This document shows, one piece after another, positions 15,812 through 26,917 of a DNA stretch of 64,000 nt. Within the stretch, counting starts at the first letter, position 1, and the number at the start of each line of letters is the position of its first letter. Source of the stretch: a bacterium (lineage in GTDB: Bacteria > Patescibacteriota > UBA1384 > CAILIB01 > JAUSJZ01); contig JAUSJZ010000010.1 of assembly GCA_030647115.1 (NCBI GenBank), positions 4,540 through 68,539 of the forward strand. Direction: 5' to 3'. Made by a program: the position numbers and the translations under genes. Below the pieces are notes generated by a model. It had not been told where the DNA came from and did no database searches. It saw only the letters and a list, made by a program, of their open reading frames with translations.

Positions 15812-15881
15812 AAACGATATCCTCTTGACAAGCTATACCAACCTGCCAGAATAAGGACAGATTAGAAGTTAACATGCGTAT

Positions 15882-16124
15882 ATGGCTTACGAGTATACCA
15901 ACTCAAAAGGACAGCTCTACCACCTCCACTCGAAGGAGGTAACCTTGAAGGGTAACCTTCAGATGAAGATCTTCTACTTTAAGAAGGAGGTCGACGAAGA
16001 GTTCGCGATTGATGAACTACCGGCCGACCGAGAGGTCGTCGAGAATGAGCGCACCGGTTTACCGCTCGTGCGACGTAAGCGAACCGAAGAAGAGGCTAAG
16101 GAAGAGGCTAAAGAAAAAGGCTAG
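15882..16124 (+). CDS. hypothetical small protein with highly charged C-terminus
   Basis: 80 aa with no clear SD. It is followed 25 nt later by a very strong intrinsic terminator, which supports a transcribed unit ending here. Confidence 0.35.
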   Translation: MAYEYTNSKGQLYHLHSKEVTLKGNLQMKIFYFKKEVDEEFAIDELPADREVVENERTGLPLVRRKRTEEEAKEEAKEKG

Positions 16125-16149
16125 GCAAGACTAGCTCTTAAGTAGGAAA

Positions 16150-16180
16150 AGACCCCATCGCTGGGGTCTTTTCTTGTTTT
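16150..16180 (+). terminator. rho-independent terminator (AGACCCCA-tcgc-TGGGGTCT + TTTCTTGTTTT)
   Basis: A perfect 8-bp GC-rich stem with a 4-nt loop and a U-rich tail. It ends the central-carbon operon before the surface locus. Confidence 0.8.
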
Positions 16181-16211
16181 ATTGGGTCTTACTTGCTACA
16201 TTCTCTTGTAG

Positions 16212-17675
16212 ATGAAACGCAGCGACCTTTTCTTTACAGCCTTATTAATACCACTGGACTACATGGCGGTGGTAGTCAGTTTTATGTTGGCTTATCTTAT
16301 TAGAGTCAGTTATCCAACCATTGTACCAATCCACTGGTTGGGCCAGGTAGCCGACACGGTTAGCTACGAACCTGACCTGCAGCTTTATCCATTAATAGCC
16401 TATGTACCGGCTATTCTGTGGTTAGTAGCCGCCATGGTCGTTACTTTTATCTTTACCGGTCTGTATCGTGCCCGTCGCTTCACTAATACCTCGGAGGCTT
16501 CATCACAGATATTACGCTCCGTCGCTTATACCTTTTTACTACTGCTGCTGGTTACCTTCGTTAGGGGCAATACAATTTTACCCCGTCTGGTAATTCTATA
16601 TGCCATGGTTTTAACGGTCTTCGCGTTGGTATTAACTCGGTGGCTGGTCCATTTTATGAGAGTGATACTACAACGATACGGGGTTGGAGTGGTACGCGTC
16701 GCCGTGCTCGGTAAGAGGCGCAACGCCGATCGGGCAATCAGCTTCATTAACAGTTTTCGGGGTGAAGGATACCGCTTTGCCAGACAGTATTCATTGGGGG
16801 AACGAGAGAAGCTGTTGCGAGCGATCGACCGACGTAAATTTGATGAGCTAATTATCGCCGTTAATCACATTGATGAGCAGGAGCTGATTGATATTAGAGA
16901 GGCCTGTATTGAAAAACGGGTCGGTTTTGCTTTCGTGCCGAGCATGTTAGAGGTGCTGACTTCAAGAGTAGAGGTTAAAGACATGCGGGGATTTACGATG
17001 ATTGAGGTGCCACTGACCCCGTTGGAGGGTTGGGGCTATATCGTCAAAAGAATCGTTGATCTCACAGGTTCGATAGTGGGTCTTATTATACTTAGCCCGT
17101 TACTAATACTTATTGCTCTAGCCATCTATATCGATAGTCCCGGCCCAATCTTTTTTAAACACAAACGACTGGGTCAGCAACTAGAGGAGTTTTCGCTGTT
17201 CAAGTTTAGAACCATGAAGACCGAATTTTGTGACGGTGAGGGTTATGACAAGAAAAGGGCTCGGGCTCACTTTGAGGAGCTGCTCAACAATAATAAACAT
17301 TTGAAGGAAGAATGGCAGACCTATCAGAAGCTGAAACACGACCCCAGAGTGACTAGATTAGGGACCATATTACGTAAGACCAGTCTTGATGAATTGCCAC
17401 AGCTCTTTAACGCTCTAAGAGGAGATGTGAGCCTGGTTGGTCCCAGACCGATAGTCCGTAATGAGCTAGAAAAATATGGTCAGATGCGGCACCGTCTGTC
17501 GGCTATTAAGCCCGGTATAACCGGTCTGTGGCAGGTGAGTGGGCGTAATGATACTACCTATGAAGAGCGGGTGAGGTTAGATATGGTTTACGTGGAGAAT
17601 TGGAGTCTCTGGTTAGACGTTGTTATTATGTTAAAGACAATCAACACACTACTATTTAGAAAAGGTGCCTACTAA
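16212..17675 (+). CDS. undecaprenyl-phosphate sugar phosphotransferase (WbaP/CpsE-like bacterial sugar transferase)
   Basis: 487 aa. It has N-terminal TM helices and a C-terminal sugar-transferase domain ([41 protein letters not shown] ... VGPRP ... GLWQVSGR). Confidence 0.85.
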
Positions 17676-18735
17676 ACGCCTGCGAGTCGCCCTCGTTAAG
17701 GACTGGCTAACTAGCTACGGTGGATCTGAAGAACAGTTGTGGCAGCTACACTTGCTCTACCCCGATGCTCCTATTTACACCTCTGTCTACGACGAGCAAC
17801 GGTTGCCGCAGTTTAAAAAAGCCACTATTAAAGAGATGTCCCTTTCGGGCTGGTTTAGAAAGGGCAGACGTTTCGAAAAATTGGCACTTATCTTACCCCT
17901 ATATTTTTCCACATTGCACCTGTCAGATTATGACCTGGTGATTTCGATCACATCGGGTTTTGCTAAAGCCGTGACAACCAACTCCCAAACCGTTCACCTG
18001 TGTATCTGTAACACTCCCATTCGGTTCGCGTGGGGTTTTGGTACCGATAAGAGGGGACTATTGGGTAGCATTCTGGCGCCCCTGTTCCGCTGGTTTGATA
18101 AACGGTCTGCTCAAAAAGTTGATTACTTTCTGGCCAATTCAGTCAATGTCGCCCGCCGCATCAAACAGGTCTACCAGCGCGATAGTGAGGTGCTGTACCC
18201 GCCGGTTCACGTCGAGAATTTTATTGATCTCAAACGCAGCCGCCAACCCGAAGGGCTGATAACGATTGGCCGTTTAGTTTATTACAAAAGAATAGATCTC
18301 ATTATTGCCGCCTGTAATCAACTACAACTACCGTTGACCGTTATTGGCACCGGCCCCGAAGAGAGTCGCTTACAAAAGCTGGCCGGACCGACAGTCAAGT
18401 TATTAGGTTTTTGTGACACCGCGAAAATTAAACAAGAACTGACTAAAGCCAAAGCCTTCGTCTTTGCCGCCGAAGAAGATTTTGGTATCGCACCGGTAGA
18501 AGCGATGGCAGCCGGGTGTCCGGTGATCGCCCTTAAAAAGGGAGGCTCGCTCGAGACGGTTACTAGTAAGACCGGCACTTTTTTTAACGAACAGACGGTA
18601 GACAGTCTGGTAGAGGCGATACAGCACCTGCCAGCAGACTGGGATATTGTCTCAATGAGAAAACAGGCCAATAAGTTTTCAGTGGAAAAATTTATTACCG
18701 GTGTTACCTCCTTTATTGATCGTTTTACACGATAA
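17665..18735 (+). CDS. glycosyltransferase family 4 (GT-B fold)
   Basis: 356 aa with a GTG start. The N-terminus is VALVKDWLTSYGGSE. The C-terminal GT1/GT4 EX7E-type region is FAAEEDFGIAPVEAMAAGCPVIA. Confidence 0.8.
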   Translation: MPTKRLRVALVKDWLTSYGGSEEQLWQLHLLYPDAPIYTSVYDEQRLPQFKKATIKEMSLSGWFRKGRRFEKLALILPLYFSTLHLSDYDLVISITSGFAKAVTTNSQTVHLCICNTPIRFAWGFGTDKRGLLGSILAPLFRWFDKRSAQKVDYFLANSVNVARRIKQVYQRDSEVLYPPVHVENFIDLKRSRQPEGLITIGRLVYYKRIDLIIAACNQLQLPLTVIGTGPEESRLQKLAGPTVKLLGFCDTAKIKQELTKAKAFVFAAEEDFGIAPVEAMAAGCPVIALKKGGSLETVTSKTGTFFNEQTVDSLVEAIQHLPADWDIVSMRKQANKFSVEKFITGVTSFIDRFTR

Positions 18736-18761
18736 TTTATGACTGTGGCATAATAGAGGCA

Positions 18762-20285
18762 ATGAGAGAGAGGGCAAAGTTGTTTGCGTTGGTGTTGGTC
18801 ACACTGACCTTATTGTTGATGGCTCCAAAATGTCTGGCGTGGAGTGAAAGTAATAATTTCATTCTAGATGATGCCAGCATCGCCCCTAATTTTACCGGAG
18901 ATTCTGGTAACCAATCGATAACGGCCACGGTCAGCCCCTTACAAAATTCACAGAGTGCCAGCAATACTCTAAACGAAGCCGGAGTAACCATTAAGGCGGT
19001 CCTACCGACTCCTTTGGCACCGTCACTACAAGCAGTTGATGGTGTCACGAAAGTTCTTAACGTTAAAATTTCACTGGGTGATAACGATCGAGCCAGTCGG
19101 GTACAGCTAAGATTAGTCTCCACCGACGGTACTTATACGGGTTACTTCATACCAAACAGTCAGGCTGTCAGTGTTAGTGATAGCTGGGTAGGGTATAACA
19201 GCTGGGGTGAAGAGTGGCGTCAGCTAAAGGAACTAGACGTTAACAAACAATATCGAGCTCAAGTCAGGGTTAAGACCGATGATTTCAGTGTCTCTGAATT
19301 TAGCGCTTTCAGTGAGGTAGTTACTCCAAACGGTATTTTGACCGCAGAGACCGGCACTCCCACCAGCAGTGTTCTGCCTAAATCATGGCAAACGAGTCGG
19401 GCTAAAAGTCTCTTGACAGCCATCGCGACGGCCCTACTACCCTTAACCGCTGCTGCCCTAATAATTCAGGCGGGAGCGGCTATCTCTATTATTGGTGAAT
19501 TACTACTAAACCTACTGGGGCGTCTTCTGGCCTCACTGCTATCGCTAGCACAATTGGTTGCCCTTGCCGGTCGAAAAAAAATCTTTGGCCAGATAATGGA
19601 CAGTAAAACCAAAAAACCGGTGCCTGGAGCACAGGTCTCTTTATTACGCCCCGATACCAGGCGAGTCCTTGACATGCAAACGACCGACCAATACGGGCGA
19701 TACTATTTTATTGCCAACAATAAACAACCGTATCTGCTGACCATTAATAAAGAAGGCTTTGATTATTGGGAGCAGGTGCTGCACTACAAGATTAACCGTC
19801 GTATCTATCTGGGTGAAAGTCTAGAGAACGACGTACCGCTACTGAAAGATAAATTTAAAAAAACGAAGTTGATGAGGGGCCTAGAGACTATCAGGGTTCC
19901 ACTACTGTTAATCGGCTCCATCTCGTGGTTGGGTGTATTTATCCAACAACAGTCTGTTCTGACCTGGGGTCTGGGAGTTTATTACGTACTGGCTTGGGTG
20001 TTAGAAATATACATCAGAATACAACCGCGACCTTTTGGGTTAGTCGTGGCTGCCACGACCAATGAGCCTCTGTCTTTAGTGGTAGTGCGCATTTACAACA
20101 ATGTTCATAAGTTGATTGAGACGGTCATCGGTGATGAACAGGGTCGCTTTAAGACCCTACTGCAGCCCGGCCGGTACAACTTTACGTTTGCTAAACAAGG
20201 TTATAAACCGAATGAATTGAACGGAATTATCATTGACCGGCATCTGGCAAGCTTGAAAGTGGATGTCACCATGTATCGTGTATAA
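18762..20285 (+). CDS. signal-peptide/polytopic membrane protein with two carboxypeptidase-regulatory-like (CarboxypepD_reg) beta-sandwich domains
   Basis: 507 aa. Signal peptide is MRERAKLFALVLVTLTLLLMAPKCLAWS. A ~200-aa extracytoplasmic region precedes hydrophobic blocks. Two segments (GQIMDSKTKKPVPGAQVSLL..DQYGRYYF and VVAATTNEPLSLVVVRIY..DEQGRFK..GRYNFTFAKQGYK) resemble carboxypeptidase regulatory-like domains. Confidence 0.55.
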   Translation: MRERAKLFALVLVTLTLLLMAPKCLAWSESNNFILDDASIAPNFTGDSGNQSITATVSPLQNSQSASNTLNEAGVTIKAVLPTPLAPSLQAVDGVTKVLNVKISLGDNDRASRVQLRLVSTDGTYTGYFIPNSQAVSVSDSWVGYNSWGEEWRQLKELDVNKQYRAQVRVKTDDFSVSEFSAFSEVVTPNGILTAETGTPTSSVLPKSWQTSRAKSLLTAIATALLPLTAAALIIQAGAAISIIGELLLNLLGRLLASLLSLAQLVALAGRKKIFGQIMDSKTKKPVPGAQVSLLRPDTRRVLDMQTTDQYGRYYFIANNKQPYLLTINKEGFDYWEQVLHYKINRRIYLGESLENDVPLLKDKFKKTKLMRGLETIRVPLLLIGSISWLGVFIQQQSVLTWGLGVYYVLAWVLEIYIRIQPRPFGLVVAATTNEPLSLVVVRIYNNVHKLIETVIGDEQGRFKTLLQPGRYNFTFAKQGYKPNELNGIIIDRHLASLKVDVTMYRV

Positions 20286-20295
20286 TTAAGTTATC

Positions 20296-23200
20296 TTGAA
20301 GGGGCAAAGTCGACTAACATCACATTTGCGCCGTTTCTTGACCATATTTTTAGGTGTGGTGGTTTTGATGTTGTCGTCACAAACAACGTCTAGGGCAGCG
20401 ACGATCAACCAATTTACTTTTCAGGCGCGTATCTTGAGTAAAGACCGCACCAGTACTCCTACTGGCAATTACAACTTCCGTTTTAGCATCTTTAACGTCG
20501 AAACGGGTGGTTCACAGTTATGGCAGGAAACTACCAATGGGGTCACGGTCAATTACGGTAAGTTTACGGTCATTCTGGGAAATTCCACCAGCCTCAATTC
20601 AGTTAACTTTAATAGTGAGGCCCTATACCTGCTGGTGGAGTTTGATTCCGATAATAACGGCAGTTTTGACCAGTCATTTGATAATCGACTGGCTTTGACG
20701 GCCGTACCGGTGGCCCAGAACGCAAAAAAGCTTGGTGGTAAGAGTGGGTCTCAATTTGCCACTTTGACCGAGAACGAGACTGTCAGTGGCAGTTATCTAT
20801 TTGAAAACAACCTTACCGTACAGGGCACTACCGTTTTGGCGGCCAGTCTTAACGGTATGGTTAAAGCCTCATCTGGCACTATTCAAAATGCTATTGCCGG
20901 AGCCGACTATCAGGCACCAATTAGCTGGGGCGATGGCTTAACGGTAGATAATAACACCGCCGCTTTAGATTATAACTCCACCAACCTTAGAATAACCTCC
21001 GAGAAAATAAATACCATTCAAGATATTGCAACGGGTGCCACACCCCAATTTGCTCGAATAGGAGTTGGCCAGGCGGCCAATAACAGTCTGATCTCTCTAC
21101 CGGCGTCCACCGGAGCCACTGGTGGGTTTGACTTGGGGGGTGATGTTAACCTCTATCGTTCGGCCAGTAATACCCTCAAGACCGATGACAGTTTGGTGAT
21201 AGGCGGCACCTCGGCTGACTTATTGGCCCAAGGAGATTTACGACTCTACGATACCGACTCCTCAAACTACGTCGCTTTACAGTCTCCAACGTCCGTGTCA
21301 TCTAACATCGTCTGGACCTTACCGGGCACCGACAGTAGCGGTTGTCTCTCTAGTAATGGTTCCGGTACTATCTCCATCGCCGCTTGTTTGAGTGCTGCAG
21401 CTCCAACTGATGCTCAATATCTAACCCTGGCCGCAAATGGTACCCTGTCAGCCGAACGGATACTGCTAGGTACCAGCAATCAAATTATTTTGGCCGATAC
21501 CGGAGCCAACGGTAATCTAACGCTGTCACTGCCCCAAGACATTGCCACCAGTTCGGCCGTACAGTTTGGTTCGCTGGGGTTGGGTACGGCGGCCGGTTCG
21601 GCTAAATTAACTTTCACTGCCGCGACCACCGCCGCCGGAGGCATTGATTTTGGAACAGACGTTACGCTCTATCGCTCGGCCGCCAATCGACTCAAAACCG
21701 ATGACGTCTTAATAGTAGATACCGGAGCCAGTGTAACCGACATTACCAGTTTTGACGCAGGCACCGTAATGGTAGTGGCCAGTACCGGTCATTCTACTAT
21801 CTCGACCTATTCGACCAGAAACACTGACGGTAGCGCTATCGGTGGGATGCGGTTTTATGGCAATAATGATGCGGCCTCACCGTCAGTAATCCAGTACGGT
21901 ATCGTTAGCGGTTCAATAGTTGATAGTGCCGCTGGCGACGAGACCGGTAAGGTATCCATTTACACTAGAAATGATACGGCAAGCAGCAACGATTGGGGTC
22001 GCGTTGATTTTGATGAAAACGGAAAAATCTGGTTAGGGGCGGTCAGCGCTTCTGGTACTGGCACCAATGATGTTAATCTCTATCGTTCGACTACCGATAC
22101 CTTAAAGACTGATGATGCTTTCATCGCTGCCAACATCACTTCAGGCGGGTTGACATCGGGTCGTGTTACCTACGCCGGAGCCTCTGGTCTATTACAAGAC
22201 TCGGCCAGTATGACTTTCGACACCACTAACGGTCTGATTCTAGCGGCCGGTTCAGCCTCAGCACTAAAGCTATCTTCAACGGCCGGTACCGCTGTCGGTG
22301 GTTTACTCTTGGGTACCGATACCACTCTCTATCGCTCGACCACGGATACTTTAAAGACTGATGATAGTCTAATTGTCGCCGGTGCCTCACTAGATTTATT
22401 AACCCAGGGTGATGTGCGGCTCTATGACAGTGATTCTTCTAATTACGTCGCCTTCCAGAGCCCGGCCACAGTCGGTACTAATATCATCTGGACTTTGCCA
22501 AGTACCGACAGTTCGGGTTGTCTATCGAGTAATGGCTCGGCGACGCTCTCTTGGGCAGCCTGTAGTGGTTCGGGGAGTCTCGACGATGCCTATAATAATG
22601 GAAGTACAATTACCGTCGATGCTGGGGCAATTGTCTTGAACGACTCCGGCACCACTACAACCTTGTTCGATATTAATCAGTCGGGGGCGATTACCGGTAC
22701 GGCACCACTTATCGATGTCGATTACTCAACCTCAATCAACAACGCCGCTGACTACGCGAGTCTAAGCCTAACCGGAGTCACCAATGCCGGCGCCGGGTTC
22801 TCAATTGGTATTGATCTGGCTGGTTTTGATTACGGTATTCAATCGGCTCTGCCGTACGTATTATCTTCCTCTAAAGCAGCTGATAGCATCGACTTTCTCT
22901 CTAAGAAACCCGACAGTTCGGGTGGTACCCAGTTTCTCTTCGACACCAGTGCCACGGTTGCTACCGCTTCGTTATTCGCGGTGAAGAATAACGGTACCGG
23001 CAGTATCTTTGTCATTAATGGCAATGGTAGAGTAGGTATTGGCACTGAAGTAGCCGGGGATAAATTGGATGTTCAGGGGGGTAATATTCGTAACAGTGCC
23101 TTAGCCGGGGTGGGTAACCGGGCCGTTTATTCTGATGCCAATGGGGTACTAACCAACAGCGCCTCCGATCAAAATATAAAAACCAATATCGTATCGTTGG

Positions 23201-23913
23201 CTTCCAGTATGAGCGCCCTCGATACGATCTCTCAATTAAGGGGAGTCTATTACAATTGGCTCGATACTGATAGATTGGGTAGCCAACGCGAGATCGGCTT
23301 TGTTGCTCAAGAGGTTCAACCGTATCTACCGGAATTAATTGGATCTAATCATGACGGCACCTTGTCGCTCGATTATCCCAAACTAACGGCCGTCTTGACC
23401 GAAGCCGTAAAACAGCTTAATACCGAAGTCAAAGCTCTTCAGGGTACCACTATGACAGCAGAGGAGATTATCAGTCCGACCAGTAAAGATTTAATCTTGA
23501 GACCAAGTACGGGTAAGATACTCGCCCAGGGCTCCATTGATGTGGCGGGCACTTTAGTGGTGAGCGGGGCGACAACCCTCGCTGATACCCTGACGAAAGA
23601 TCTGGCGGTAGCCGGTACTTTTATGGTCAAGGGTAGCGGTACTGCCGACTACGAATTAGACGGTTCTGAAGACGATACCAATTTGATTGGCGGTACTGAA
23701 AAAGCTGCCATTGCCAACGGCCAGACTGAGACTAACATCAGTATTCCATCACAGGGCACCAATAATTATTCGGTTATTGCCACCTGGCTGAACGACCCCG
23801 GGCAATCATTCTGGACAACCGTAACCGACTCGGAGCATTTCAAGGTCAGGGTGAGTAACCCGGTCGCCGCCGATTCTACCTTCCGTTATCTACTAATCAA
23901 TAACGAACAGTAG
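20296..23913 (+). CDS. secreted tail-fibre-like repeat protein with C-terminal Peptidase S74 intramolecular-chaperone (auto-cleaving) domain
   Basis: 1205 aa with a TTG start. The signal peptide is (MKGQSRLTSHLRRFLTIFLGVVVLMLSSQTTSRA). LYRS..L.TDD modules recur. The fibre motif is GRVGIGTEVAGDKLDVQGG. The C-terminal domain is SASDQNIKTNI..LRGVYYNWLD..EIGFVAQEVQPYLPELI..LSLDYPKLTAVLTEAVKQL. Confidence 0.7.
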   Translation: MKGQSRLTSHLRRFLTIFLGVVVLMLSSQTTSRAATINQFTFQARILSKDRTSTPTGNYNFRFSIFNVETGGSQLWQETTNGVTVNYGKFTVILGNSTSLNSVNFNSEALYLLVEFDSDNNGSFDQSFDNRLALTAVPVAQNAKKLGGKSGSQFATLTENETVSGSYLFENNLTVQGTTVLAASLNGMVKASSGTIQNAIAGADYQAPISWGDGLTVDNNTAALDYNSTNLRITSEKINTIQDIATGATPQFARIGVGQAANNSLISLPASTGATGGFDLGGDVNLYRSASNTLKTDDSLVIGGTSADLLAQGDLRLYDTDSSNYVALQSPTSVSSNIVWTLPGTDSSGCLSSNGSGTISIAACLSAAAPTDAQYLTLAANGTLSAERILLGTSNQIILADTGANGNLTLSLPQDIATSSAVQFGSLGLGTAAGSAKLTFTAATTAAGGIDFGTDVTLYRSAANRLKTDDVLIVDTGASVTDITSFDAGTVMVVASTGHSTISTYSTRNTDGSAIGGMRFYGNNDAASPSVIQYGIVSGSIVDSAAGDETGKVSIYTRNDTASSNDWGRVDFDENGKIWLGAVSASGTGTNDVNLYRSTTDTLKTDDAFIAANITSGGLTSGRVTYAGASGLLQDSASMTFDTTNGLILAAGSASALKLSSTAGTAVGGLLLGTDTTLYRSTTDTLKTDDSLIVAGASLDLLTQGDVRLYDSDSSNYVAFQSPATVGTNIIWTLPSTDSSGCLSSNGSATLSWAACSGSGSLDDAYNNGSTITVDAGAIVLNDSGTTTTLFDINQSGAITGTAPLIDVDYSTSINNAADYASLSLTGVTNAGAGFSIGIDLAGFDYGIQSALPYVLSSSKAADSIDFLSKKPDSSGGTQFLFDTSATVATASLFAVKNNGTGSIFVINGNGRVGIGTEVAGDKLDVQGGNIRNSALAGVGNRAVYSDANGVLTNSASDQNIKTNIVSLASSMSALDTISQLRGVYYNWLDTDRLGSQREIGFVAQEVQPYLPELIGSNHDGTLSLDYPKLTAVLTEAVKQLNTEVKALQGTTMTAEEIISPTSKDLILRPSTGKILAQGSIDVAGTLVVSGATTLADTLTKDLAVAGTFMVKGSGTADYELDGSEDDTNLIGGTEKAAIANGQTETNISIPSQGTNNYSVIATWLNDPGQSFWTTVTDSEHFKVRVSNPVAADSTFRYLLINNEQ

Positions 23914-23918
23914 CGACC

Positions 23919-23937
23919 ACAGTAGCTAACTGCTACT
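23919..23937 (+). terminator. weak hairpin (CAGTAGC-taact-GCTACTG) between fibre gene and GT2
   Basis: Perfect 7-bp stem immediately after the fibre gene stop. No strong U tract follows, so this may be an attenuator or RNA-stability element. Confidence 0.25.
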
Positions 23938-23945
23938 GTTGAAAC

Positions 23946-24914
23946 GTGGAATATCTAATACCGCACTACGGTTCTTTGAAATTGGTCAAGAAAGCGGTAC
24001 GCAGTATCAGACGCTGTGACGGTAACGCCCGCATTTTAATTGGAGACGATACCAGACTATTGCAGACGTCAGACTTTACGACCAAGGTAAATATTTTTAA
24101 AGGTCCGCAACGTGGATTTGCGGCTAACGTTAATAACCTGTTAAGGAATGCCCAATACGAGTGGGTAGTTATCATCAATAATGACGTTGAACTATTTAGT
24201 GACTGGCGGGTAATTATAGAGAATAATCTTGAAGAACTAGACCCAAAAATATACTGCCTGGCCAGCAGTCTCTACCGACCCGACGGGCGAGTAGATAGTT
24301 TTGGCGATAATTACTCTTGGTATGGTCAAGGCTACAATCGTTTTCATCTACTCTCACCGAAGAATAAGATGTACAATCGAGTGCGAGTGTTGGGAGCAAC
24401 CGGGGCTCTGATGGTTGTCAGACGTAGCGTTCTACTGCGCTATGGTGGTTTTTCGGAGATATTGGGTAGTTACTGCGAGGATACGGCCTTTCATCTCTTA
24501 GCCAATAATGATGGTTGGTGCAGTTATTTCATCCCGGACGCGCGGGCTTTTCACACCGGTTCCGCTACCTTCAACCTCGATCAAAAACTGCAGCTGTCGG
24601 CTCGTAATAGCCTTTTGGTCATCCGGTCGCTATTTAAGGGCAAGTTGAGGCAACATCTGTTAAGAAGGGCTTATCACTACTGGAAGTTAAAGGCTCTGTT
24701 CAGTCGTAAATTTCGATTGCAGATTTTAGAAGGCATTAGAGCCGGTTTGTCAGAAATACCCTATCGAGCAAAACGTAAAATTGATCATTGGCCGGATGGG
24801 TTATATTTTGAGGGTTTTGCCACCTCTACCTGGCGTCTGACAAAGCAGCTATTGGGTAATCGTGTAATCGCTAAGTTGGGGCGTCTATTCACCCTAAACG
24901 ACATTGATAGTTGA
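23946..24914 (+). CDS. glycosyltransferase family 2 (GT-A fold)
   Basis: 322 aa with a GTG start. GT2 N-terminal region (IPHYGS..LVKKAVRSI..ILIGDD ... VVIINNDVEL) with a DXD-type motif. Confidence 0.65.
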   Translation: MEYLIPHYGSLKLVKKAVRSIRRCDGNARILIGDDTRLLQTSDFTTKVNIFKGPQRGFAANVNNLLRNAQYEWVVIINNDVELFSDWRVIIENNLEELDPKIYCLASSLYRPDGRVDSFGDNYSWYGQGYNRFHLLSPKNKMYNRVRVLGATGALMVVRRSVLLRYGGFSEILGSYCEDTAFHLLANNDGWCSYFIPDARAFHTGSATFNLDQKLQLSARNSLLVIRSLFKGKLRQHLLRRAYHYWKLKALFSRKFRLQILEGIRAGLSEIPYRAKRKIDHWPDGLYFEGFATSTWRLTKQLLGNRVIAKLGRLFTLNDIDS

Positions 24915-24943
24915 GTAATTTAGTGCTACTATAAAGAAGTTAG

Positions 24944-26917
<1,974 letters not shown>

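Follow-up and report, generated by a model that had tools for sequence, protein, structure and literature searches.

We analysed a stretch of 64,000 nucleotides (hereafter, the window) from a small, probably symbiotic bacterium of the Patescibacteriota (assembly GCA_030647115.1, contig JAUSJZ010000010.1), in which five plus-strand open reading frames (ORFs), one of them encoding a large protein that resembles a phage tail fibre, precede gyrB (at 24965) and gyrA. An earlier note, made from the letters of the window alone, had described five co-directional, closely packed genes between a terminator and gyrB and proposed that they might form an accessory-looking module for host attachment or the surface layer. 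The ORF coordinates agreed with that layout, the spacings within the block being -11, 26, 10 and 32 nt, and searches with Pfam hidden Markov models confirmed the sugar transferase, GT4, CarboxypepD_reg, S74 and GT2 assignments, all of which exceeded the gathering scores. The five genes are:

16212..17675, plus strand: polyprenyl-phosphate sugar-1-phosphate transferase (priming transferase) of the large WbaP type, with transmembrane (TM) segments, CoA_binding_3 and Bac_transf
17665..18735, plus strand: soluble glycosyltransferase of the GT4 family (PF00534)
18762..20285, plus strand: polytopic membrane protein of 507 residues, proposed partner of the fibre (PF13620)
20296..23913, plus strand: fibre protein of 1205 residues
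23946..24914, plus strand: soluble glycosyltransferase of the GT2 family, last gene of the unit (PF00535)

The five genes occupy a fixed position in related genomes

The same five genes were found in the same order and at the same place in 7 distinct relatives, the syntenic loci being named L001, L002, L003 (= L007), L004, L005 (= L006) and L030 (L004 is recorded as Patescibacteria_CAILIB01 and L007 as Candidatus Saccharibacteria, in support of a Patescibacteria origin). In the window and in all the relatives, the unit is preceded by pfkB, a 2-hydroxyacid dehydrogenase gene and a small ORF, and followed by gyrB, gyrA and infB. The GC content of the five-gene block was 0.467-0.492, compared to 0.448-0.516 over the whole window. 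The accessory character attributed to the block was therefore not sustained: because its synteny is constant in all relatives found and its GC content unremarkable, the locus is better described as fixed in the clade, with one highly plastic gene, than as an accessory island.

When compared with the distant members of this group, gyrB was 71-78% identical, the priming transferase 51-58%, the GT4 53-60%, the GT2 32-41% and the membrane protein 33-41%, and the fibre could be aligned only at its N-terminus (up to about 600 residues in L005) and, in most of them, over the last 275-330 residues. The fibres were 921, 1140, 1196, 1205, 1607, 1673 and 2088 residues long.

A predicted secreted fibre with an internal S74 domain

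The fibre protein of the window is 100% identical to an NCBI entry from a metagenome-assembled genome (MAG), 'MAG: tail fiber domain-containing protein [bacterium]', and was divided into the following parts:

20296..20397, plus strand: signal peptide, residues 1-34, predicted cleavage SRA/A (sequence inspection)
20398..20820, plus strand: N-terminal domain (N-domain), residues 35 to ~175, MAT_N-like (NF053851)
20821..23163, plus strand: modular shaft and tip, residues 176-956 (DNA repeat families D1 and D2)
21733..22086, plus strand: hypervariable shaft cassette, residues ~480-597 (windows of identity and of non-synonymous divergence, dN)
23164..23460, plus strand: S74 intramolecular chaperone and predicted self-cleaving domain (PF13884; SDQNIK, residues 957-962)
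23461..23913, plus strand: post-chaperone C-terminal module, residues ~1056-1205 (conservation among orthologues)

Inspection of the sequence revealed a signal peptide with a positive n-region, a hydrophobic core (residues 14-32) and an AxA-type site, and all orthologues shared both this layout and the TTG start. The NCBI model of the fibre (P0001, 1181 residues) starts at M25, which would remove half of the signal peptide. An exact-sequence look-up of either version of the fibre found no contig. Hydropathy revealed no further membrane segment and, given this combination, the fibre is expected to be secreted and to need a partner in order to stay on the cell.

For the N-domain we found neither a Pfam model nor a PDB relative. 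The NCBIfam model Bdello_MAT_N (NF053851) aligned to residues 26-101 of the fibre, covering just positions 3-79 of its 162, and matched 19 of 19 related N-domains (best E = 6.8e-11), all with scores under its 60-bit cut-off. The host attachment suggested in the earlier note thereby gained a studied analogue, at sub-threshold scores, in the mosaic adhesive trimer (MAT) fibres of Bdellovibrio, which are surface-exposed adhesins of that predator (PMC10769870). A profile of the N-domain reached 70,335 clusters (50% identity; E of 1e-3 or better) among 1.84 billion representatives, 26,895 of them at E of 1e-10 or better. The domain was N-terminal in all of the best 150 matches, in proteins reaching more than 5,000 residues; a word-indexed protein search with the same profile returned mostly short fragments. 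With a family this large and devoid of a Pfam model, the annotation of many giant 'hypothetical' proteins would benefit from its description.

Peptidase_S74 (PF13884) was detected at residues 957-1014 (6.1e-13; 49.3 bits versus a cut-off of 22). The catalytic motif SDQNIK, in which S957 is the predicted scissile serine and K962 the predicted general base, is present, and the Ser and Lys were invariant in the 8 aligned orthologues, in keeping with the auto-cleaving protein postulated from the window alone. Among PDB entries, the S74 profile matched phage S16 gp37 6f45 (2e-08), 8jov (3.6e-08), MYRF 7dc3 (0.0066) and phi29 gp12 (0.26), always within the limits of the chaperone. Judged by these sequence features, the protein is very probably a secreted S74-type fibre.

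Fibres of this type are also found in phages, and the gene might be a captured remnant of a prophage or tailocin: PHROG tail families match the C-terminal part of the protein (1.1e-11 to 1.3e-06), and S74 relatives on viral contigs (best 80 of 342 confirmed) are up to 59% identical to the S74 domain of the window. However, no phage structural, lysis or integration genes were found among the flanking ORFs scanned, which include glycolysis genes and gyrB/gyrA, the composition is normal, the position is identical in the 7 distinct relatives, and none of 15 viral proteins sampled had the signal peptide, the N-domain or the post-chaperone module. A phage remnant is thus very improbable, and a chromosomal fibre gene of the bacterium itself is the reading we retain. 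Five IMG/VR contigs (L033-L037) carry S74 domains 52-59% identical to that of the window, far closer than typical phage S74; they may come from phages that infect related Patescibacteria, or the S74 module may have been exchanged recently.

Unlike in solved phage chaperones, the S74 domain of the fibre is internal and does not form the C-terminal end. The module of about 150 residues that follows it, a short beta-rich linker and then a predicted beta-sandwich ending in FRYLLI (motifs IPSQG, DPGQ and FRYLLI), was conserved in the seven orthologues compared and was also located, close to the C-terminal end, in fibres of L015, L018 and L019 that lack an S74 domain. It was not reached by any of the best 80 of the 342 viral S74 relatives, and the sampled viral ORFs ended 0-27 residues after the chaperone in 14 of 15 cases and 63 residues after it in the remaining one. 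Since the module is conserved here and not covered by the viral relatives, we describe the fibre as an S74 chaperone followed by a cap-like terminal domain. The isolated module had no Pfam match, and AlphaFold2 (AF2) gave a predicted local distance difference test (pLDDT) of 60-68 over the last 100 residues, too weak a model to name the fold. A Foldseek likeness to tailspike C-terminal domains (Pam1 7eea, E = 0.011; Sf6 2vbm, E = 0.069) was not significant and was set aside as a hint only.

Plasticity of the shaft

The recognisable pattern of the shaft comprises four D[VT]xLYRSxxxxLKTDD modules, at residues 286, 458, 595 and 678, together with an internal duplication that shows in the Cys pairs 350/364 and 742/756, and the number of LYR..LKTDD modules ranged from 2 to 5 in the orthologues of 921-2088 residues. 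Hypervariability across relatives, which the earlier note had proposed to look for, was confined, among close relatives, to one place. In these the fibre as a whole was no more diverged than its metabolic neighbours (dN of 0.083 versus 0.03-0.13 for neighbouring genes), but the cassette at residues ~480-597 was just 15-25% identical, with indels, to that of L002 and 53-78% to that of L001, when most other 40-residue windows of the fibre were 68-100% identical; its dN was 0.21-0.32, compared to 0.03-0.15 in most other 100-residue windows. The cassette alone had no Pfam match. Residues 718-957 were 80-100% identical in close relatives (mostly at least 90%) and replaced in distant ones. Tip and shaft, replaced in distant orthologues, stay 95-100% conserved in close ones, a pattern that fits a swapping of tips with host range. 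The dN/dS ratio was discarded as a test of diversifying selection, since synonymous sites are saturated (synonymous divergence, dS, of 1.3-2.3) and the ratios consequently uninformative; a diversity-generating retroelement was also rejected, no copy of any fibre segment being present elsewhere in the window.

The composition of the protein (44% Ser + Thr + Ala + Gly, with 19 N-x-S/T sequons) raises another explanation, namely that this large secreted protein is a structural glycoprotein of the envelope or of a surface layer (S-layer), encoded in a locus akin to the clusters for S-layer glycosylation known from Gram-positive bacteria. It does adjoin a WbaP-type initiating transferase and two glycosyltransferases, and the locus is clade-fixed and single-copy, with a purifying constraint in close relatives like that of its neighbours. 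Nevertheless, an S74 chaperone, a MAT_N-like domain and a shaft of LYR..LKTDD modules typify trimeric fibres and not lattice proteins, a length of 921 to 2088 residues with a shaft wholly replaced among orthologues is hard to square with a conserved lattice, and neither an oligosaccharyltransferase nor a transporter gene was found in the five genes and the scanned flanks. We consider an S-layer-type protein improbable and favour a fibrous appendage.

A membrane protein recurrently encoded beside the fibre

The combination of a membrane protein and a fibre in the architecture first proposed for the locus was also upheld. According to hydropathy and the AF2 model, the 507-residue protein consists of a signal helix, a disordered stretch opening with a conserved ESNNFxL, an FN3-like ectodomain, a first hydrophobic region (~55 residues), a CarboxypepD_reg domain, a TM hairpin and a second CarboxypepD_reg domain. 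PF13620 was matched in two stretches (2.6e-19; 69.8 bits versus a cut-off of 32.3). The model places beta-sandwiches at residues 80-190 (block-mean pLDDT 73-89), 273-350 and 424-504 and helices at 2-25, 214-260 and 358-419. Foldseek returned only generic FN3, transthyretin-like and CnaB (Ig-like) folds, and domains of the model superposed on the transthyretin-like domain of carboxypeptidase D (5aq0) with TM-scores of 0.87-0.89; matches to SlaB and NOMO had low TM-scores and were dismissed as no evidence of relationship. No Pfam match was obtained for the isolated ectodomain. Throughout the family, an acidic ectodomain is combined with basic CarboxypepD_reg parts, in which RKK/RRKR clusters abut the membrane segments. 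The compact form of the protein is rare, with 7 clusters in 5.8 billion proteins.

An alignment of the membrane protein was then scanned against one genome per species. Distant homologues, in records assigned to Uhrbacteria, Magasanikbacteria and other Patescibacteria, were 25-30% identical over the TM/CarboxypepD_reg part and were larger, with more FN3 domains. In 12 of the 16 distant loci that could be evaluated, an ORF for a fibre with the N-domain was found directly downstream of the membrane-protein homologue or within about 1 kb of it. These ORFs, of 636-2552 residues, open with a signal peptide and the N-domain, and a second one often follows. Because the pair recurs in these loci without glycosyltransferases, the membrane protein and the fibre were regarded as the core module and the glycan genes as an addition in the present clade. 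As judged from gene neighbourhoods, the membrane protein keeps specifically to fibres, but fibres with the N-domain also occur without it.

Upstream of the pair, the distant loci encode a protein with 12 TM segments and tetratricopeptide repeats (TPR), a secreted protein of ~210 residues and an Ig-like protein of ~310 residues with a C-terminal anchor. The whole distant operon thus reads: 12-TM protein with C-terminal TPR, ~210-residue secreted protein, ~310-residue Ig-like C-anchored protein, a membrane-protein homologue of ~1000 residues (acidic, FN3-rich and ending in the TM/CarboxypepD_reg module) and one or two giant fibres; it occupies L019:2176-16852 and has equivalents in L010, L013, L015, L018, L020, L021 and L022. 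Records of MAGs named 'uncultured Gammaproteobacteria bacterium' (L012, L014-L019, L021, L024, L025 and L027) share this operon with Magasanikbacteria and Uhrbacteria, and the taxonomy they give may not be reliable. In the compact membrane protein, the mature N-terminus is predicted to read ES[NQ][ND][FY]xL (window 18846-18870, residues 29-36), and a similar motif, [MT]S[ST]N[FY]x[IL]..D..G.GG, stands at the mature N-terminus of secreted proteins of 209-307 residues encoded upstream in distant operons (L009:3663-4562, L015:4359-4988, L017:952-1875, L019:4491-5120 and L025:4561-5475). The motif could be a sorting or strand-addition signal.

The glycan genes

The priming transferase matched Bac_transf (PF02397; 3.2e-63, 212.9 bits versus a cut-off of 27), CoA_binding_3 (PF13727; 7e-07) and NCBIfam TIGR03025 (EPS_sugtrans, exopolysaccharide (EPS) polyprenyl glycosylphosphotransferases; 378.7 bits versus a cut-off of 295.6), and scored under the cut-offs of the WbaP and WcaJ equivalog models. 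Its hydrophobic segments span residues 4-38, 56-87, 98-153 and 276-315. In the GT4 protein, Glycos_transf_1 (PF00534; 2.9e-24, 86 bits versus a cut-off of 26.4) and PF13692 (1.6e-20) were found, with no TM segment and no equivalog-level NCBIfam match; the GtfA and SdgA models matched weakly (1.8e-07 and 5.2e-07), far under their cut-offs. The GT2 protein was assigned by Glycos_transf_2 (PF00535; 3.9e-08, 33.8 bits versus a cut-off of 23.3) and likewise had no equivalog-level NCBIfam assignment. Its gene lies directly 3' of the fibre gene in every syntenic locus extending that far.

The recurrence of the pair elsewhere lends itself to a second reading of the unit, in which only the membrane protein and the fibre cooperate and the glycosyltransferases, merely sharing the operon, produce something unconnected with them, either an envelope polysaccharide or a glycosylated polymer of the cell wall. 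The 12 distant loci with the two-gene core and no relatives of the Bac_transf, GT4 and GT2 genes nearby would be expected in that case, as would their different neighbours (the 12-TM protein with TPR and the small secreted proteins); NCBIfam classes the priming transferase as a genuine EPS-type enzyme; and the transferases evolve more slowly than the core pair (51-60% identity for Bac_transf and GT4, 33-41% for the membrane protein). On the other hand, the GT2 gene lies within the unit, 3' of the fibre gene, wherever the syntenic loci reach that point, no promoter or terminator separates the two groups of genes, and a gene order maintained over ~50% protein divergence, in a genome that is reduced, points to co-regulation for a common purpose. 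Independent glycan synthesis is accordingly possible, if on the unlikely side, and a single joint function of the five genes remains our preferred interpretation.

Transcription signals and the small upstream ORF

Three signals bound the unit:

16146..16185, plus strand: intrinsic terminator after the small upstream gene, marking the 5' limit of the operon (12-bp inverted repeat)
16174..16202, plus strand: candidate operon promoter (-35 TTGTTT at 16174-16179, 17-nt spacer, extended -10 TGCTACATT at 16194-16202)
24904..24932, plus strand: candidate gyrB promoter, downstream boundary (TTGATA, 17 nt, TGCTACTAT)

The strong terminator of the earlier note, placed there at 16150-16180, proved to be real. 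Its stem, GAAAAGACCCCA/TGGGGTCTTTTC, is a perfect 12 bp (16146-16157 and 16162-16173) with a 4-nt loop and a T-rich tail, and the hairpin was kept by compensatory substitutions in L001, L002, L004, L006, L007 and L030; a consensus scan did not include it among its plus-strand entries. In the candidate promoter, TTGTYY and TGYTACATT were invariant or nearly so in six loci whose proteins are merely 51-58% identical, with a gap to the start codon of 8-9 nt across loci and of 9 nt in the window (16203-16211, before the ATG). A tight operon, as first described, is thus supported, and it would have a promoter of its own. With the -10 element ending 9 nt before the ATG, a leaderless or near-leaderless mRNA is implied.

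The candidate gyrB promoter, found by the scan with a TG extension, overlaps the end of the GT2 gene, and its -35 and extended -10 elements were conserved in 5-6 loci. We found no terminator inside the five-gene unit, and none between the GT2 gene and gyrB, so that read-through is possible. At 18745-18764, an extended -10-like TGGCATAAT ends 7 nt 5' of the membrane-protein ATG, an arrangement resembling that before the first gene; it may be an internal promoter of the leaderless type for the membrane protein and fibre core.

The small upstream ORF (80 residues, window 15882-16124, plus strand) is preceded by a promoter-like TTGACA-16-CAGAAT at 15825-15852 and comes with a conserved promoter, 5' leader and terminator of its own. 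It was better conserved in relatives than gyrB (78-99% versus 71-94% identity), and its dS was just 0.12-0.17 between close relatives, compared to 1.3-2.0 in neighbouring genes. No match was found in Pfam, NCBIfam or PHROG. An RNA gene was considered and rejected, as no Rfam match came near its gathering score and the changes at third codon positions in distant relatives fit a protein-coding gene; the ORF is perhaps a very highly expressed coding gene.

Interpretation

We assign a probability of roughly 0.55 to the reading that the five genes are transcribed as one unit and together produce a surface appendage resembling a phage tail fibre, the whole chain from secretion, trimer formation and cleavage to anchoring, glycan and adhesion included. 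According to this model, the 1205-residue protein would leave the cytoplasm through the Sec pathway and lose its signal peptide. The S74 chaperone, probably aided by the terminal beta-sandwich module, would register three chains at their C-termini, the shaft would fold as a trimer, and the chaperone would then cut at S957, so that the C-terminal 249 residues come away and the mature tip is uncovered. The N-domain would hold the fibre at the cell surface, its holding or assembly partner being most likely the adjacent polytopic membrane protein with its FN3-like ectodomain. The priming transferase, the GT4 and the GT2 would build a short lipid-linked glycan that either decorates the fibre or forms an envelope glycan in which the fibre base is bedded. 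Finally, the fibre would recognise the surface of another cell, that is, the host of an episymbiont, by analogy with the Bdellovibrio MAT fibres. Such adhesion to a host cell is suggested by the Bdellovibrio precedent and by the lifestyle of cultivated Patescibacteria (PMC10769870; PMC12206443). What the analysis shows directly is the gene order, the domains and motifs, and the conservation of the operon and of the two-gene core; trimerisation, S957 cleavage, anchoring by the membrane protein, the target of the glycan and adhesion are all conclusions that we infer for the window protein.

Several results weigh against this model. The match of the fibre to Bdello_MAT_N (3.8e-10, 39.8 bits) stayed under the curated cut-off of 60. 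The AF2 monomer model of residues 930-1205, built on an 8-sequence alignment, was poor (pLDDT 45). Among distant orthologues, no part of the fibre is better conserved than the one that cleavage would remove, a peculiar situation if the chaperone is simply discarded. The positive-inside rule suggests that both CarboxypepD_reg domains are cytoplasmic and only the ectodomain is exposed, which would leave the FN3-like ectodomain as the sole part able to contact the fibre. Both of the two N-domain fibres looked up outside CarboxypepD_reg loci had no CarboxypepD_reg neighbour. As for the glycan, relatives of its three genes were absent from the neighbourhood of the distant two-gene cores, and no domain of an oligosaccharyltransferase or ligase, a flippase or transporter, or a polymerase was found in the five genes and the scanned flanking ORFs, so that the pathway is incomplete at this locus.

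A more far-reaching proposal is that the FN3/CarboxypepD_reg protein serves the MAT-type N-domain as its dedicated partner on the cell side, be it as anchor or as assembly platform, in a two-gene module extending across the Patescibacteria; in the present Saccharibacteria-related clade, this module and its own glycan genes would together make up the host-recognition organelle of the episymbiont. We advance it tentatively and consider it unlikely on balance. If true, the membrane protein would supply the N-domain partner that the Bdellovibrio work left open (PMC10769870).

The kind of fibre is itself already known: the MAT authors report relatives in other bacteria (PMC10769870), and the NCBI name of the protein is already tail-fibre-like. 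A literature search combining Patescibacteria or Saccharibacteria with S74 or tail-fibre terms found no paper with the taxon among the matches listed, and the fixed five-gene operon, the internal S74 domain with its conserved terminal module and the recurrent pairing with the FN3/CarboxypepD_reg protein appear to be undescribed in the searchable literature. According to PMC12206443, type IV pili are the only studied host-contact device of episymbiotic Patescibacteria. The locus would be a second candidate device by which these ultrasmall bacteria find and hold their hosts, with a fibre constructed broadly along the lines of those by which Bdellovibrio recognises its prey. Its fixed syntenic position makes it easy to find and compare, and the recurrent pairing with one membrane protein offers a testable answer as to where such fibres are attached.

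Comparison with known systems

The locus resembles the S-layer (WsaP/WbaP) and adhesin (GtfA/GtfB, SdgA/SdgB) clusters of Gram-positive bacteria in that a large secreted Ser/Thr-rich protein is encoded beside a WbaP-type transferase and GT4/GT2 enzymes, and differs from them in having no oligosaccharyltransferase, flippase or ABC transporter. With the ICA domain of MYRF the fibre shares an internal S74-type domain, so that cleavage separates two functional halves; MYRF, however, is a eukaryotic membrane-tethered transcription factor whose C-terminal half has a TM helix, and none is predicted in the fibre. The fibres and tailspikes of phages (K1F endosialidase, T5 pb1, S16 gp37) likewise have an S74 domain with a Ser-Lys dyad, S16 gp37 being the best PDB match. 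The window fibre, in contrast, is predicted to be Sec-exported, is chromosomally encoded and is extended at its C-terminus, and the phage proteins have neither a signal peptide nor a MAT_N-like domain.

The S74 subgroup of the MAT fibres (Bd3182; PMC10769870) shares with the window protein a signal peptide followed directly by a conserved beta-rich N-domain (by the sub-threshold model match), a long fibre, an S74 domain with SDxxxK, a chromosomal gene and, probably for the present organism too, a life on other bacteria. Tips are exchanged between paralogues or orthologues in the two cases alike. The MAT fibres belong to the phylum Bdellovibrionota and not to the Patescibacteria, and 21 MAT genes are spread across the genome of B. 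bacteriovorus HD100, whereas the DNA analysed here has a single copy, at a fixed locus. Bd3182 releases 140 residues (PMC10769870), whereas the S74 domain of the window fibre is internal and followed by the ~150-residue module, so that the predicted release is of 249. A further difference from MAT is that the window fibre is encoded together with a polytopic CarboxypepD_reg protein and three glycan enzymes.

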